Shown: piece after piece, positions 28,866-34,515 of the stretch
Layout: each line of letters begins with the position of its first letter
Numbering within the stretch: the stretch's first letter is position 1
Source: an uncultured Gammaproteobacteria bacterium
GTDB lineage: Bacteria; Patescibacteriota; Patescibacteriia; UBA9934; GWF2-40-263
Reading direction: 5' to 3'
DNA length: 64,000 bases
Assembly (NCBI GenBank): GCA_964402425.1
Contig: CAYOCD010000005.1
Coordinates: 6,064 to 70,063 of the forward strand
The notes under the pieces: model-generated
Database searches by the model: none
What the model saw: the letters and a program-made list of their open reading frames with translations, nothing else
What the model was told of the DNA's origin: nothing
Made by a program: the position numbers and the translations under genes

Positions 28866-29255
28866 TTACATTCCATGTGCAGATGCCATTTGCGGAAGAA
28901 AGAGATCAAATGGAATGGGGCCTGTCCGCGATCTGATATGTTCCATTCTTCCGATGCGACCTGTGAGCCCAAGGAATCGAACGAGTGTTTTTTCCAGGAT
29001 GCGTTTTGAAAAGAAGGTGAACAGGATGGTGGTTGCGAGAAGAATGGCTGTGAGTTCTTGGCTTAGGGTAATTTCTGGGGAGTGTTTTTCTGTGTGAAGT
29101 GGAGCGGAGGCGTGTTCAACGGAGCAATAAGGACCTTGTACAAAAAAGAGTGTTCCTGTTTGTACACATCCTGCAATGTTTGCGACAAGAAAACTCATCG
29201 CAAGAAGAGCGAATATGAGACTGATCGCAAGTGATCGCGGACAAGCACGAATCAT
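28866..29255 (-). CDS. hypothetical small membrane protein next to dsbA
   Basis: 129 aa, two hydrophobic helices; lacks the DsbB/VKOR CxxC, so not called as DsbB. Confidence 0.3.
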   Translation of the reverse strand: MIRACPRSLAISLIFALLAMSFLVANIAGCVQTGTLFFVQGPYCSVEHASAPLHTEKHSPEITLSQELTAILLATTILFTFFSKRILEKTLVRFLGLTGRIGRMEHIRSRTGPIPFDLFLPQMASAHGM

Positions 29256-29388
29256 AACGAGGGAATTATAGCAGATGAAAATATGAAAAGTGAGAATGCG
29301 TCAAGATGGAGCGAATATTCGCACAGAGAGATGATGTGTCGTATAATCTGAAAACAAAGTCTAAAGGAAAAGACCAGAATCGACGATT

Positions 29389-30309
29389 ATGAAACATCTT
29401 GATCAACTTATTACAGACTTTCTCGAGTATCTTGAAATTGAGCGCGGGCGTTCAAATCGCACGATCCGAAATTATGATTTTTATTTGCGACGATTTTCTG
29501 AATTTGCGCACAACCCATCACCAAAAGATGTTACACGCGACAAAATTCACGAATATCGTTTGTGGTTGAATCGTATGGAGAGCGGAAGACAGCGTGAACA
29601 ACTCTCAAAGAGTACACAGAACTATCATCTCATCGCTCTTCGTTCGTTTTTGAAATATCTTGCGCGTCAAGCTGTTGAAAGTTTGCCATCGGAACAGATT
29701 GAACTTGCAAAAACACCAATGCGACAAGTGGAATTTTTGGAAGTTGATGAACTTGATCGATTGCTTAAGGCTCCTGACAGGACTGCTGCTGGAATGATTG
29801 CTCTACGCGATAAGGCAATTCTTGAATTGTTATTTTCAACAGGTTTACGTGTGTCTGAGCTTTCAAATTTAAAAATAGAGAACGTAAATTTGAAGCGCGA
29901 TGAATTTACAATTCGTGGAAAGGGTGGAAAGACACGACTCGTGTTTCTTTCGAGTACAGCAAAAGATGCGATCAAAAGTTATTTTGAGAAACGCCGTGAT
30001 ACTTCCCCATTTATATTTGTTTCACATGATCGCGCAAAGCATGGGCGAGAAGAAACGGGGCCACTCACTCCTCGTTCAATACAGCGCATGGTTGAACGGT
30101 ATGCAACCGCTGTGGGAATTACAAAACATATTACACCTCATACATTGCGCCACACGTTCGCGACCGATCTCTTGCTTTCCGGAGCAGACATCCGATCGGT
30201 GCAATCCATGCTCGGTCACTCGAGTATCACAACAACACAGATTTATACACACATTACCAACAACCAGATGAAAGATGTGTATGAAAAGTTTCATGGAAAG
30301 AATCGCTAA
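29389..30309 (+). CDS. xerD: tyrosine site-specific recombinase XerC/XerD
   Basis: 306 aa; catalytic R..H..R..Y region HTLRHTFATDLL...LGHSSITTTQIYTHI. Confidence 0.88.
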   Translation: MKHLDQLITDFLEYLEIERGRSNRTIRNYDFYLRRFSEFAHNPSPKDVTRDKIHEYRLWLNRMESGRQREQLSKSTQNYHLIALRSFLKYLARQAVESLPSEQIELAKTPMRQVEFLEVDELDRLLKAPDRTAAGMIALRDKAILELLFSTGLRVSELSNLKIENVNLKRDEFTIRGKGGKTRLVFLSSTAKDAIKSYFEKRRDTSPFIFVSHDRAKHGREETGPLTPRSIQRMVERYATAVGITKHITPHTLRHTFATDLLLSGADIRSVQSMLGHSSITTTQIYTHITNNQMKDVYEKFHGKNR

Positions 30310-30387
30310 AGAAAAAATGACCACATGGTCGAAAGACTTTCATTGTCAAGAAAAACCACCCATAGCTTTCGCTGGGTGGTAGATTGA

Positions 30388-30907
30388 CTAGTAGGTCGGA
30401 ATTCCGGTGAGTTCTTTGATTTCCCGTACGTTCGGGGCGATGATTGTGTGCGCTCGCATGCCATGTTCGTGCAGAATTTCAAGCGCGAGCTTTTCTCCCC
30501 CCCCCCAGAAGCATCCAGTTTACGACGGCGTTCCTGAATGGGGGTCAATATGTCGATAATGCGATTTGCAAGCAAATGCTTGCAGTCACCACATCGAAGT
30601 GTTCCGTTCCTGCATCCGAATTGGATGTCCATTTCTTCTGCGGCAGTGTTGCACGAGAGTGCATACAGCTGATAAACGCGACACTTTTCCGGTTGACCAG
30701 GTTGGTCTTCGATGCGCGGCTCTTCGGATTTCTCGCTTGTGGTGTGATTGTCCGGCAAGCGTTTGTCTGCCTTCATGATCTTTTGACGGATCAAAAGTTT
30801 TTCGGATCTTTTGCAAGTTCAACAAAGTGACGTATCGCACCAAGGTAGTTACCAAGATGCAAAATACCTGTTGGCCGAATGCCTGACAGAATGATTTTTC
30901 GTTCCAT
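30388..30907 (-). pseudogene. trpS: tryptophanyl-tRNA synthetase remnant (internal deletion, premature stop, homopolymer frameshift)
   Basis: AAGGAG RBS then [38 protein letters not shown]-stop (TrpRS N-terminus with the GNY-GA motif). Another frame gives ...KIMKADKRLPDNH...YQLYALSCNTAAEEMDIQFGCRNGTLRCGDCKHLLANRIIDILTPIQERRR (TrpRS C-terminal third, degenerate KMSKS). A further frameshift at C10 (30497-30506) precedes ...EKLALEILHEHGMRAHTIIAPNVREIKE. Total 0.5 kb versus about 1 kb expected. Confidence 0.6.
30497..30506. repeat. C10/G10 homopolymer tract at the trpS frameshift
   Basis: Ten consecutive C; one extra C would restore the downstream TrpRS frame. Confidence 0.8.
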
Positions 30908-30990
30908 TGAAAACTCCTTGGAAAGGACAAGAAACTTTACGAGTTCCCCTGTTTGGAAGGTAAATGTTTTTTTGTGTATCTGTCAATCCT

Positions 30991-31509
30991 TTAGGTGTGA
31001 TTGATCCACGCAAGAAGTGTGTCGATGTGCGAGCGCAGCACGTGATCGATCTCACCGATTATTTTGACGTACCGGTTCTCGTCTGTGTTCCCGCAAGGGT
31101 CCACGATATCGGATTGTTCCCCGGACAGCCCTGTGAACAATCGTGTTTTCGAACGTTCTTCAGGAAATTGCTTCGTGAGCGAATTTGGTGCTTCAGAAAG
31201 AACAGACGTGTCCATAGCAATGACGACGTCGGCTGCACGCATTGCCTGAAGGTTGATCGGTGTCGCGACATGTTCCGAGATGTCGATTTCGTAACGCTCA
31301 AGAACAGAACGTGCTGCGGCATATTCCGAAACATAGCCGGACAGATTTGGAAATTTTGTCGGTGTTGTTCCTGCAGAGCCTTTCAGTCCACACGATTGAA
31401 CCCGGATGACTTCAGAGAGGTTTTGTTCGATCAGGATTTTTCGCAGGAGATGTTCGGCGATCACAGAGCGTGAAATGTTTCCCAGGCAAACGAAAAGAAC
31501 TGTTTTCAT
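30991..31509 (-). CDS. low-molecular-weight protein tyrosine phosphatase / ArsC-like
   Basis: P-loop VCLGNISRS (CX5R) near the N-terminus; DPCG motif. Confidence 0.8.
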   Translation of the reverse strand: MKTVLFVCLGNISRSVIAEHLLRKILIEQNLSEVIRVQSCGLKGSAGTTPTKFPNLSGYVSEYAAARSVLERYEIDISEHVATPINLQAMRAADVVIAMDTSVLSEAPNSLTKQFPEERSKTRLFTGLSGEQSDIVDPCGNTDENRYVKIIGEIDHVLRSHIDTLLAWINHT

Positions 31510-31615
31510 TGCGGCCTCTTATGGGCTGATTAAAACATTAGCCCATTTCGTTCTACTCGTTCAGAGATACGTTGTCAATTTCAAAAAAAATGAACACAAA
31601 CAAAAAACAGGTTGG

Positions 31616-32386
31616 TTAAACCTGTTTTATTTTTATGGATTGTACGAATTTTTTTGCGTTCGCCGGATCAATGCGTTGATCGTAGCCTCTTACATTTACT
31701 TCTTGTTTTTTTGCTGCTCCTTTTTTGAGGGCAGTGCTTACGATTGTTCCGTTTGCAAATTGGAAGAGTGCATTTACATTTTGTGCATCTGTTCCACTTC
31801 CGATGATGATGGGAAAATCCCCAACGGATTTTCTGACACGTTCAAGTTCATTTAAATCAGGTGCTTGTCCGGTCCATTTTCCTGTGATGATCAATCCATC
31901 AGAACCAGAGTTGATTGCTGCTTTTGCGGATTGTAAAATCGTTTTCTTTGAGAGGAGTTCAGCGTGCTTTACGTGAATGTCTGTAAAAATTGCAACGTGT
32001 TCTACACCAATGCGTTTACGATACGCAATGACTTTTTTTGCTTCGCCCTCAATAATTCCACATGCCGTTTTTACTTTATCGACAAATACAGGAATGCGTA
32101 TGAATTGAAGATTAAAAGTTTTTGCTAGAGAAAGAGCTGTTCGATAATCATTCCAGAGAACACTTACGCCGATAGGTAATTTTGTTTGTGGACGAATTTT
32201 TTCTATCAGATACGACATGGAAGTTATGATGGCTTGGTCAACAAATTCTGTGTGTGGAATGTCATAATTGTTTTCTAAAATGATTGCATCAAAACCGTCT
32301 GATTGAAACGCGGTCAAGTTTTTCAATGCAAAAGTAATGGGAGAGGTGTGATAAGGTCCTCGATTAAGCTGAATTCCTTGACACAT
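31616..32386 (-). CDS. BtpA/SgcQ-family TIM-barrel protein
   Basis: ...DAIILENNYDIPH...IIGSGTDAQNV... consistent with the BtpA family. Confidence 0.6.
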   Translation of the reverse strand: MCQGIQLNRGPYHTSPITFALKNLTAFQSDGFDAIILENNYDIPHTEFVDQAIITSMSYLIEKIRPQTKLPIGVSVLWNDYRTALSLAKTFNLQFIRIPVFVDKVKTACGIIEGEAKKVIAYRKRIGVEHVAIFTDIHVKHAELLSKKTILQSAKAAINSGSDGLIITGKWTGQAPDLNELERVRKSVGDFPIIIGSGTDAQNVNALFQFANGTIVSTALKKGAAKKQEVNVRGYDQRIDPANAKKFVQSIKIKQV

Positions 32387-32447
32387 GAGTCAGAATGTGG
32401 TTTTTTGAACGTGGGCTCGCGCATATTTGCGAACTCAGGGAACGAAC

Positions 32448-32948
32448 ATGAGTTTTCTTGTCTTCTTGATCGTGCTTGTTAGCAGCGGTCAACCTGTAAA
32501 GAGTTTTGAAACTCTTTATGTCCATCACCTTGATCATTTCGATGCACCACGTCCGTATCTTTCCGATGCAGAATACATGAAACGTGTTTTTGTACAGGCA
32601 AAAAAGTCTGGTGCAACAAAGCGGCAAATGCAGCGACTGTATCGGATCGCGCATGAGGAAACAAAGAATAGTCCTCGGGCGTGTGGAAAAAATGGATGCG
32701 GTCCTTTTCAACAACGCGTTCGTTCATTGTCTGAAAGATATGTGAATACAGAATACGTTCGAAATTGGTTTCGGTGGTTGCTTACAAACAAGCCAGGCTT
32801 CGCCGCCACAACCGCACTCGACATGTTGCAACGATGTGAAAATCTCTCAGGAGAATATTGGCGCTGTTGTTACGGCGGTGCGTATCGGTCAGAGTGTCGC
32901 ATCAAATGGGATAAGAAGTATCGAAAAGAACAAGAAGAAAAGACCTAA
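32448..32948 (+). CDS. hypothetical secreted Cys-rich protein
   Basis: Signal peptide MSFLVFLIVLVSSGQP; eight Cys in the C-terminal half. Confidence 0.45.
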   Translation: MSFLVFLIVLVSSGQPVKSFETLYVHHLDHFDAPRPYLSDAEYMKRVFVQAKKSGATKRQMQRLYRIAHEETKNSPRACGKNGCGPFQQRVRSLSERYVNTEYVRNWFRWLLTNKPGFAATTALDMLQRCENLSGEYWRCCYGGAYRSECRIKWDKKYRKEQEEKT

Positions 32949-32952
32949 CGAC

Positions 32953-32982
32953 CCCATCTTACTCAGATGGGATTTTTTTTAT
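32953..32982 (+). terminator. rho-independent terminator
   Basis: CCCATCT-TACTC-AGATGGG followed by ATTTTTTTTAT. Confidence 0.65.
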
Positions 32983-33038
32983 CAAAAAATCCTTCGAGTT
33001 TATCGAAAGATTTCTTATAAAAAGATAGATTTTAAATC

Positions 33039-33115
33039 TGGTGGCCCGAACTGGGGTCGAACCAGTGACCTTGGGCTTAGAAGTCCCCTGCTCTATCCAA
33101 CTGAGCTATCGGGCC
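33039..33115 (-). tRNA. tRNA-Arg (anticodon TCT), CCA encoded
   Basis: Reverse complement GGCCCGATAGCTCAGTTGGATAGAGCAGGGGACTTCTAAGCCCAAGGTCACTGGTTCGACCCCAGTTCGGGCCACCA. Perfect acceptor, D-arm identical to the E. coli tRNA-Arg UCU D-arm, T-arm ACTGG-TTCGACC-CCAGT. The anticodon stem has only 3 G-C pairs (G27.A43 and A31.G39 mismatches). Confidence 0.75.
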
Positions 33116-33358
33116 AGGTTTTTTAAAATCCATCTTTTTGATTCTGAACGAAGTGTGCTTTATCCAAAACCGATGTTTCGGTCGGCTCCGCGACCTATCC
33201 GACAGCGTTGTGGTTGAGCTGCCAAGCCGTTTAGAAAGCACCAAAAATATATCGAATTTTTGTTGATTTGTCAATCAACTCCTGTCTTTATATCTTGACT
33301 TTTCGTGAAAAATCGGTAATGATCCATTTTAGGATTGCTCATTACAGGAGAAGAAACA

Positions 33359-33979
33359 ATGAAGCTTCGTCTGATTGGTCTCACAGGCAACATGGGTTGT
33401 GGGAAAAGTACGGTTGCGGAATTGCTCGCGAAATTTCCGGATGTGGTTGTGTACAACACAGATCTCCTTTGGAGAGAAATGTTGCATGAACCATTTACGC
33501 GTGGTTATGTCAGATTTCTGATCGGTGAACACGCATATGTTGATGGTGTTCCAGAGATCACGATCATCAGTAAAGTTATTTTTGCGGATGATGAAAAACG
33601 TGCGGCACTTGAAGCGTTTGCAGGGTTGCATCTCATGACAGAAATTGTAGATCGTGCCGGAAAATTGCCAGACAAAATGCACGTGATTGAAAATGCCATT
33701 TTGTTTGAAAGTGAGAGTCTGAAATATTTTCCTGAACCAATGGAAGTGATCGTTGCGATATGCGACGAAGAAGAACAACTTCGTCGTGTTCTCTCTCGCG
33801 AAATTCCAGGACGCCCGAATCTTACGCGTGCGCAGTTTAATGCACGTGTTGCAAAGCAGTGGCCGCAAGCAAAAAAAGTTGCTCTCGCGACGCATGTCAT
33901 TGATACGTTCTGTTCCCTTCCCGAGCTCGAAGGTCGAGTGAAGGATCTGTACGCTCAACTCATTGGAGAAAAATCATGA
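33359..33979 (+). CDS. coaE: dephospho-CoA kinase
   Basis: P-loop GLTGNMGCGKST; start at the Met preceding the P-loop. Confidence 0.82.
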   Translation: MKLRLIGLTGNMGCGKSTVAELLAKFPDVVVYNTDLLWREMLHEPFTRGYVRFLIGEHAYVDGVPEITIISKVIFADDEKRAALEAFAGLHLMTEIVDRAGKLPDKMHVIENAILFESESLKYFPEPMEVIVAICDEEEQLRRVLSREIPGRPNLTRAQFNARVAKQWPQAKKVALATHVIDTFCSLPELEGRVKDLYAQLIGEKS

Positions 33980-34515
33980 GTCATACAGTCGGTGTTTACG
34001 CGGGTTCGTTTGATCTGTTTACCAAAGGTCATTTATGGGTTGCGGAACAAGGATCGAACTTGTTTGATAAGCTCATTATCGCTGTTGCTGTGAATCCGGT
34101 GAAGGCAAAGAAAACCATGTTTACCGTTGATGAACGTCTTGCACAAATCCGTGCATGTACGTCACATCTTCCGAATGTGGAAGTAACATTCTGCGAAAAA
34201 AAGTTTTTGCATGATTATGTGATGAGTCTCAAGGCAAACTGGATTCTGCGGGGCATTCGTGGTCCGAAAGATTATGAAGCTGAAGCAAGTATGCAAGACA
34301 TGGTTCGCGAGGCGCTTGAAAAGAAAAAGTGTACGTACGATTTGCAAACCGCATTCGTTCGTCCTCCGCATGACGTAGCTGTTGTGAGTTCAAGTGCGGT
34401 CAAAGAACTGATGGGATTTGATGGATGGGAAGAATTGGTTGAACAATTTGTCTCGCCGGAAATTCTTGAGTTGGTTATCTTGAAATTCAAGGAGGTGCTC
34501 CATGCAAACGTTTAA
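33976..34515 (+). CDS. coaD: phosphopantetheine adenylyltransferase
   Basis: GSFDLFTKGH (HxGH-type) motif; 4-nt overlap with coaE. Confidence 0.88.
   Translation: MSHTVGVYAGSFDLFTKGHLWVAEQGSNLFDKLIIAVAVNPVKAKKTMFTVDERLAQIRACTSHLPNVEVTFCEKKFLHDYVMSLKANWILRGIRGPKDYEAEASMQDMVREALEKKKCTYDLQTAFVRPPHDVAVVSSSAVKELMGFDGWEELVEQFVSPEILELVILKFKEVLHANV

Follow-up and report, generated by a model that had tools for sequence, protein, structure and literature searches.

A probable young pseudogene of a [4Fe-4S]-type tryptophanyl-tRNA synthetase in a Candidatus Uhrbacteria population

Our analysis of a 64-kb stretch of contig CAYOCD010000005.1 (assembly GCA_964402425.1; the whole stretch is referred to below as the window) revealed a broken trpS gene, encoding tryptophanyl-tRNA synthetase (TrpRS), of which 520 bp remain from a 1,065-bp gene on the minus strand (positions 30907-30388). 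The organism, an uncultured bacterium of the groundwater type, is placed with Candidatus Uhrbacteria (Candidate Phyla Radiation (CPR)/Patescibacteria) by the protein cluster to which its XerD recombinase belongs. We consider this locus to be, with a probability of about 0.85, a young pseudogene of the bacterial [4Fe-4S]-type TrpRS in a Candidatus Uhrbacteria population. The remnant retains both ends of the gene distributed over three reading frames, and because no recoding can replace the 183 codons that are missing between them, the locus is expected to make no functional synthetase. The underlying 550-nt deletion is firmly established as real in the population, being identical, together with its junction, in every contig that spans the whole remnant (about 20 contigs; one more, L033, covers the remnant start only).

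Structure and identity of the trpS remnant

Intact TrpRS genes are found at the syntenic position in three sister Uhrbacteria loci, L034 (354 amino acids (aa); its contig was reached through the neighbouring phosphatase gene), L038 and L039 (contig MGFD01000014.1 of Candidatus Uhrbacteria bacterium RIFOXYB2_FULL_45_11, protein OGL99137.1). The metagenome scan yielded one sister contig, and the scan of species-representative genomes one close relative. In the residue numbering of L034, the remnant and its immediate flanks comprise the following elements.

30914-30919, minus strand: Shine-Dalgarno sequence AAGGAG, read directly from the sequence; the ATG at 30907 starts 6 nt downstream
30791-30907, minus strand: N-terminal 38 codons of trpS with the HIGH-type motif HLGN, followed by TGA (30793-30791); detected by profile matches, 37 of 38 residues identical to L034 TrpRS residues 1-38
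30792-30794, minus strand: deletion junction with TTG microhomology, from nucleotide comparison with L034; 550 nt missing (codons 39-221 plus 1 nt)
30507-30794, minus strand: middle segment, corresponding to L034 residues 222 to about 319, in a frame shifted by one base from that of the N-terminal open reading frame (ORF)
30582-30683, minus strand: intact C-x22-C-x6-C-x2-C motif of the [4Fe-4S]-binding kind, with Cys codons starting at 30683, 30614, 30593 and 30584
30497-30506, minus strand: G10 homopolymer (C10 on the plus strand), seen in the sequence, which shifts the frame
30388-30495, minus strand: last 35 codons of trpS (EKLALEIL...GIPTY) and TAG (30390-30388) in a third frame, 81% identical to L034 residues 318-354
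30351-30379, no strand assigned: terminator-like hairpin CCACCCA...TGGGTGG followed on the gene strand by a run of T, in the interval separating the convergent trpS and xerD genes; also kept 3' of the intact L034 trpS

The identity of the remnant is supported by several matches well beyond chance level. The NCBIfam profile TIGR00233 (trpS) recognizes both halves (E-values of 6.7e-8 and 5.4e-10) and, with an E-value of 5.8e-19, the fragment reconstructed from them. Within the 38-aa ORF, PF00579 matches residues 4-33 and TIGR00233 residues 3-35, and the HIGH-type signature HLGN occupies residues 17-20. A tblastn comparison of the intact L034 TrpRS with the window aligns two stretches, residues 1-38 at 97% identity and residues 222-354 at about 79%. 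The anticodon-binding domain is represented by TIGR00233 positions 217-327 and aligns to residues 239-333 of 2g36_A, the Thermotoga maritima TrpRS, which is also the best match of the remnant among solved structures (E-value of 1.1e-12). Even after correction of the frames, the 171-aa product scores 68.6 bits and stays below the curated TIGR00233 cut-off (176.75 bits), which the intact L034 enzyme passes at 253 bits. A complete Rossmann-fold catalytic domain is absent, as is the KMSKS loop: its equivalent KMGKS lies at L034 residues 204-208, inside the deleted interval 39-221. The C-x22-C-x6-C-x2-C motif, whose exact spacing is shared by the remnant and L034, binds a [4Fe-4S] cluster in the anticodon-binding domain of the T. 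maritima enzyme (PMC2954223), and, with cluster binding predicted from this motif, the remnant gene would belong to the [4Fe-4S] type of TrpRS.

The intergenic region 5' of the remnant and its counterpart at the intact L034 gene share 83% identity. The C-terminal part amounts to 133 codons in two frames split by the G10 tract, which in its plus-strand form (C10) is the only G/C homopolymer of at least 7 bases in the window. The second-frame translation, running from 30794 to TPIQERRRKLDASGGG at the G10 run, contains the start of the anticodon-binding domain and holds the sequence KIMKADK; the third frame opens with EKLALEILHEHG and closes with TGIPTY. Both frame changes have the same sign, one extra base being enough to restore each of them. 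The hairpin downstream of the gene is absent from the terminator listing made for the region, and an Rfam search at a permissive threshold for a T-box or other regulatory RNA upstream of the gene found only a tRNA-Arg.

The first-pass annotation of the window had described a decayed trpS of about 0.5 kb out of about 1 kb, with a ribosome-binding site, 38 N-terminal codons ending in TGA, no catalytic core, a C-terminal part in another frame and a C10 run that shifts the frame again such that one extra base would restore it. Our results bear out this description: profile and tblastn matches account for 520 bp of 1,065 bp, the ribosome-binding site and the truncated N-terminal ORF are read at the coordinates listed above, residues 39-221 with KMGKS and most of the Rossmann fold are gone, and an allele with the one extra base (G11) exists in other assemblies (protein P0001). 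The same annotation had taken IMKAD for a degenerate KMSKS; this label was misassigned, as KMGKS lies inside the deletion and IMKAD is part of KIMKADK, a stretch (from residue 226) that is conserved in the closest and in some of the more distant intact genes (L034, P0295 and P0144), with KIKKADK at its place in L038 and L039 and KILKADK in P0294.

The deletion, the homopolymer and the age of the inactivation

At the nucleotide level, L034 reads ...AACTTTTG|TATGTTC... at the upstream and ...CCTGAATTG|ATTCGTCAA... at the downstream border of the missing interval, and the window reads ...AACTTTTG|ATCCGTCAA... (in short form, GAATTG|ATTCGT in L034 versus AACTTTTG|ATCCGT in the window). The junction itself produces the premature stop, the codons AAC TTT TGT ATG of L034 being matched by AAC TTT TGA TCC in the window. 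The length of the remnant is fully accounted for by the 1,065 bp of the intact gene minus 550 for the deletion, plus 6 for two extra Gly codons and minus 1 for G10 instead of G11, which gives 520 bp. A single event of illegitimate recombination or slippage between two TTG microhomologies removed the 550 nt; it took most of the Rossmann-fold core with the KMGKS loop and created the TGA. Microhomologies of 3 nt are typical of illegitimate recombination or replication slippage, not of site-specific recombination. The suggestion of decay at a recombinase-flanked site finds no support, in view of this 3-nt junction and of the unchanged location of xerD in relatives without the gene cluster described below. 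A pair of 18-nt imperfect direct repeats (30777-30794 and 30805-30822) was also considered as the substrate of the deletion and rejected, since both copies are still present and the junction is at TTG.

The similarity between the window and L034 is a mosaic (window 30792-32330 versus 30330-30794), with nucleotide identities of 95% in the phosphatase (LMWPc) gene, 94% in the trpS N-terminus and 77% in the trpS C-terminal part, which in the window is no closer to L034 than to L038. This drop from 94-95% to 77% implies a past recombination breakpoint, as far as can be judged from the alignment, inside trpS and within or adjoining the deleted interval. A truncated relative was also observed on a short contig (L007, ENA ERZ18668069, 893 bp), which carries at 239-893 a related trpS with about 82% amino acid identity to L034 residues 1-147; homology is lost after about codon 147, with a stop at codon 169. 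A different lineage may have undergone a truncation of its own here, or the short contig may be chimeric.

The distribution of the remnant was assessed by exact-protein look-ups, which gathered loci from JGI, ENA (MEGAHIT) and Logan assemblies. Contigs with the locus, 99.9-100% identical to the window, are listed under about 19 further accessions of samples or assemblies. The 510 bases of the remnant outside the G tract show zero differences among all spanning contigs; the tract is the only site of the remnant that varies, and it differs in 12 of the 18 contigs spanning it. Its length is G9 in 5 samples, G10 in 6 (the window included), G11 in 4 and G13 in 1. By comparison, about 108 kb of pairwise alignment contain only 6 single-nucleotide polymorphism positions, one 4-bp indel and one 77-bp deletion as other differences. 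Two Logan contigs, L023 and L031, end exactly at the homopolymer (window positions 30506 and 30497), which is consistent with length heterogeneity within the sample or with poor read quality. The variation in tract length probably reflects real slippage, with sequencing noise as a possible contribution. Intact sister genes have GGT GGT or GGC GGC (Gly-Gly) and no long G tract at this site, and the Gly-Gly stretch has become a G9-G13 homopolymer in the window lineage, with G5, G8 and G11 as the in-frame series. Among the lengths of the present form, 11, 8 or 14 are in frame, and G11 restores it; in-frame lengths make up 4 of the 16, about the one-third expected by chance, with no enrichment. 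Depending on tract length, gene callers report "hypothetical proteins" of 38, 104, 129, 135, 156 or 157 aa, the 129-135-aa predictions (P0001) coming from the G11 assemblies.

The C-terminal remnant bears almost no signal of relaxed selection in either of two tests. Its dN/dS relative to L034, L038 and L039 is 0.09-0.10 (0.08 between the intact genes), and dN is not raised (0.115-0.124 versus 0.144 for the intact genes); dS between remnant and relatives is saturated, and the population is clonal. In an alignment with 27 intact relatives, none of the 20 invariant columns is altered in the remnant, and of the 21 columns with at least 85% conservation 19 are unchanged, the other two showing H-to-Y and R-to-H changes. 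As dN/dS, the conserved columns, the four Fe-S cysteines, the ribosome-binding site and the terminator have all been kept, the inactivation is dated as recent compared with the split between these lineages. The near absence of relaxed selection, taken by itself, cannot distinguish a pseudogene from a retained function.

Loss of the gene cluster around trpS

In the sister Uhrbacteria, genes between tRNA-Arg and xerD follow the order tRNA-Arg, TrmB, an ORF, PfkB, M20 peptidase, another ORF, TrpD-like, BtpA, low-molecular-weight (LMW) phosphatase, TrpRS, pyridoxal-phosphate (PLP)-dependent decarboxylase, EamA transporter and XerD. The corresponding region of the window contains the following features.

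29389-30309, plus strand: xerD-type tyrosine recombinase, convergent with trpS (Pfam PF00589/PF02899)
30306-30330, no strand assigned: second junction, at which the sisters have about 2.6 kb (PLP-dependent decarboxylase and EamA transporter); L034 8427-11018 is without homology in the window
30991-31509, minus strand: LMW phosphotyrosine phosphatase (Pfam PF01451), protein 93% identical to the L034 copy
31616-32386, minus strand: btpA/sgcQ-family gene without the conserved N-terminal segment, from alignment; the Pfam match starts at profile position 28
33039-33115, minus strand: tRNA-Arg(TCT), at the opposite end of the variable segment 30310-32984 from xerD (tRNA and Rfam searches)

Homologues of PfkB, M20 peptidase, TrpD-like protein, decarboxylase and EamA were found nowhere in the window. 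The VHFxPLxG segment of BtpA, present in L034, L038 and L046, is replaced in the window, and in contig L030 (JGI sample 3300042542) btpA has suffered a further deletion of 77 bp (window 32230-32306). The phosphatase is the one cluster gene left apparently intact. This pattern suggests that the whole cluster is still decaying.

In Rifle Uhrbacteria whose XerD is 93% identical, xerD and tRNA-Arg are separated by about 400 bp with none of the cluster genes between them. On the other hand, a distant Uhrbacterium (GCA_016187485.1, contig JACPJO010000003.1; TrpRS 51% identical) has the TrpD-like, BtpA and LMW phosphatase genes divergent from TrpRS, with genes for a PLP decarboxylase and a tryptophan 2,3-dioxygenase-like protein on the TrpRS side. 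The TrpD-like protein of this neighbourhood is a homologue of anthranilate phosphoribosyltransferase. Parts of the neighbourhood recur around related CPR-type TrpRS genes in L045, L035-L037 and L042, with related Logan contigs among L046-L049; downstream of TrpRS, these loci have a group II PLP decarboxylase gene, a tryptophan 2,3-dioxygenase-like gene or both, and TrpRS identity among them goes down to 50%. The neighbourhood is old, as it extends to the distant GCA_016187485.1, and our literature searches found no description of a TrpRS-dioxygenase-decarboxylase neighbourhood. Overall, the broken gene is one member of a conserved tryptophan-related Uhrbacteria cluster that is being lost in the window lineage.

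Alignment to orthologous loci in relatives, which the first-pass annotation had proposed, thus confirmed the deletion by revealing an intact gene at the same site. The accompanying idea of a decaying duplicate found no support, the broken copy being located where sister Uhrbacteria keep their TIGR00233-passing TrpRS, inside the conserved cluster; it may therefore be the ancestral or canonical copy of the lineage rather than an extra one. The evidence on this point goes in both directions: a canonical role agrees with the equivalog match, with a sequence type annotated as TrpRS across the CPR and with strong purifying selection, and an auxiliary role with dispensability in this population, absence from the syntenic site of the Rifle genomes and tight linkage to tryptophan-consuming enzymes.

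A tRNA-associated integrative island was considered for the variable segment and rejected: no att-like, tRNA-derived direct repeats are present in 29000-34000, xerD is kept in genomes without the segment, and the cluster is conserved across Uhrbacteria. The location of xerD is unchanged whether or not a relative has the cluster, which marks this gene as a conserved neighbour of the housekeeping type; nothing points to its involvement. Several other details of this region were recorded. The tRNA-Arg(TCT) gene is flanked by the arms of a 31-nt inverted repeat (81% complementary; window 33019-33139), which consist partly of the acceptor stem and of AT-rich flanks. Just upstream of the same tRNA, assembly L026 has a 4-bp indel (window 32978-32981). 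At the site of the sisters' TrmB-PfkB-M20-TrpD-like block, the window has a 173-aa ORF (32427-32948, plus strand) with an N-terminal hydrophobic segment and several cysteines, without Pfam or NCBIfam match.

Tryptophan charging, alternative explanations and known systems

The organism is expected to need TrpRS activity, as tryptophan makes up 0.92% of the residues in the long ORFs of the window (a normal codon use) and TGA is a stop codon, terminating 5 of the 28 long ORFs. At the same time, a deletion carried by a population assembled from many samples indicates that the broken gene was dispensable. We infer from these two observations that the charging of tryptophan is performed by another trpS outside the window, which would have let the loss spread through the population. 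An alternative genetic code was also considered, given that the four stops in the N-terminal frame are all TGA, and rejected; this coincidence was judged to be fortuitous because TGA ends 5 of 28 ORFs and the frame is not TrpRS-like.

A number of observations speak against a plain young pseudogene or weaken the support for it. No second trpS was found in the 64-kb window (tblastn with the intact sister TrpRS; best other hit with an E-value of 0.12), and among the nearest TrpRS clusters, including the best candidate P0319, no TrpRS could be assigned either to this population or to the Rifle relatives without the cluster. Beyond the two lesions there is no further decay, with no extra stops and with the ribosome-binding site and terminator preserved. 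The G11 allele contains a 135-codon ORF that corresponds to the complete anticodon-binding domain and starts with a TTG overlapping the upstream TGA by 4 nt. Differences in tract length may partly reflect Illumina or assembler error, and some of the JGI, ENA and Logan assemblies may share libraries, so that independent samples would be fewer than accessions.

The most direct challenge to a genuine pseudogene is that the true genome has a full-length trpS and that the deletion and frameshift come from a collapsed or chimeric assembly, as the first-pass annotation had allowed. A homopolymer is indeed a typical site of short-read error, and two contigs end exactly there. We nevertheless regard an artefact as very improbable: the same 520-bp remnant, with the same deletion and junction, was obtained by different pipelines from many samples (about 20 spanning contigs, about 19 other accessions) without any difference outside the homopolymer, and the look-ups gave no intact version from this population; among the genes fetched, the nearest intact ones (L034, L038 and L039) are about 79% identical to the remnant in the C-terminal part. 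Rescue by recoding, with the ribosome (by -1 frameshifting) or the transcription machinery (by slippage) correcting the frame at both the junction and the G tract, is the least probable of the alternatives. Long G tracts do promote transcriptional slippage, and both frame changes are of one base and of the same sign; however, even a perfectly recoded product would be only 171-173 aa long and devoid of residues 39-221 (68.6 against 176.75 bits), and no separate gene within the window supplies the missing core. That the lineage has lost its only trpS, and obtains Trp-tRNA from a host or partner or through another enzyme, seems about as improbable as the artefact. It is favoured by the lack of another TrpRS copy in the 64-kb window and by the nature of the broken copy, which is of the type annotated as TrpRS in the CPR and lies at the conserved Uhrbacterial position. 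On the other hand, tryptophan codons have a normal frequency, the search covered 64 kb of the genome only, and close relatives without the cluster at this locus must encode their TrpRS elsewhere. To our knowledge, no bacterium imports charged tRNA or lacks TrpRS. Multiple TrpRS genes per genome are, moreover, documented in the CPR and in organisms with an Fe-S TrpRS (PMC5370408, PMC2954223).

Slightly more likely than these, though still improbable, is that the locus encodes a phase-variable small protein, with the G11 (ON) state expressing a stand-alone [4Fe-4S] anticodon-binding domain of 129-135 aa with a new tRNA-binding or regulatory role, whose translation may be coupled to that of the 38-aa N-terminal peptide. 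The four tract lengths (9, 10, 11 and 13) seen across samples in an otherwise invariant remnant fit such a switch, as do the predicted 129-135-aa ORF of the G11 assemblies, with its 4-nt TTG/TGA overlap, and the preservation of all Fe-S ligands and invariant residues. Against it, the in-frame share of 4 in 16 is about what chance would give (one-third), the internal start lacks a preceding Shine-Dalgarno sequence, and the surrounding cluster is being lost piecemeal. The retained residues are explained equally well by a recent event, given saturated dS and a clonal population, and no stand-alone family of TrpRS C-terminal domains stood out in an exhaustive search, in which short hits were not examined one by one. 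A residual role for the 135-aa Fe-S domain ORF in the G11 phase is possible, with no positive support. A further, tentative extension of the young-pseudogene reading is that the broken copy was the canonical Fe-S TrpRS, already replaced by a different and possibly horizontally acquired TrpRS, and/or that the G tract now turns a stand-alone 135-aa [4Fe-4S] anticodon-binding-domain protein ON and OFF. If the canonical copy is indeed the one that broke, a synthetase displacement would have been caught just after the event.

As a pseudogene the locus is ordinary in kind, with a known enzyme family and a hypervariable homopolymer. It should be marked as a trpS pseudogene in annotation. In biological terms it presents a clean and dated case of gene loss in small CPR genomes, in which one microhomology deletion has spread in the population and been followed by piecemeal loss of the neighbours. 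The lost gene being an aminoacyl-tRNA synthetase, TrpRS redundancy or displacement in the clade is implied. The comparison also exposed a conserved Uhrbacterial neighbourhood composed of TrpRS, TrpD-like, tryptophan dioxygenase-like and PLP decarboxylase genes.

Among characterized systems, the T. maritima TrpRS (TM0492, PDB 2G36) shares with the remnant the C-x22-C-x6-C-x2-C spacing and an alignable N-terminal HIGH region, whereas the window copy has lost residues 39-221, with the catalytic core and KMSKS, and is frameshifted; the intact Uhrbacteria relatives differ from the T. maritima enzyme by an extra KIMKADKRLPDN... insertion before the first Cys. The TrpRS genes of the sister Uhrbacteria (354-368 aa) share with the window the position BtpA-LMWPc-TrpRS...XerD and the terminator hairpin, but are followed by the PLP decarboxylase and EamA genes, both absent from the window. 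Phase variation by poly-G/C tracts is known in Neisseria, Haemophilus and Campylobacter. As in these contingency loci, a coding-region tract of at least 9 bases is polymorphic in length and toggles the frame; unlike in them, the gene that holds the tract in the window is one that a deletion has already inactivated, and in-frame lengths are not enriched. Precedents come from auxiliary TrpRS systems, in which one genome can encode two or more TrpRS and TrpRS genes can be linked to genes of tryptophan metabolism. For example, the TrpRS II of Deinococcus radiodurans is paired with nitric oxide synthase. This enzyme has been compared structurally with the T. maritima TrpRS, and in some organisms a second TrpRS is present alongside the Fe-S enzyme (PMC2954223). 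Some CPR bacteria carry additional TrpRS genes, termed TrpRS-A (PMC5370408), from which the gene of the window differs in being of the ordinary bacterial/CPR type and not of the archaeal type.

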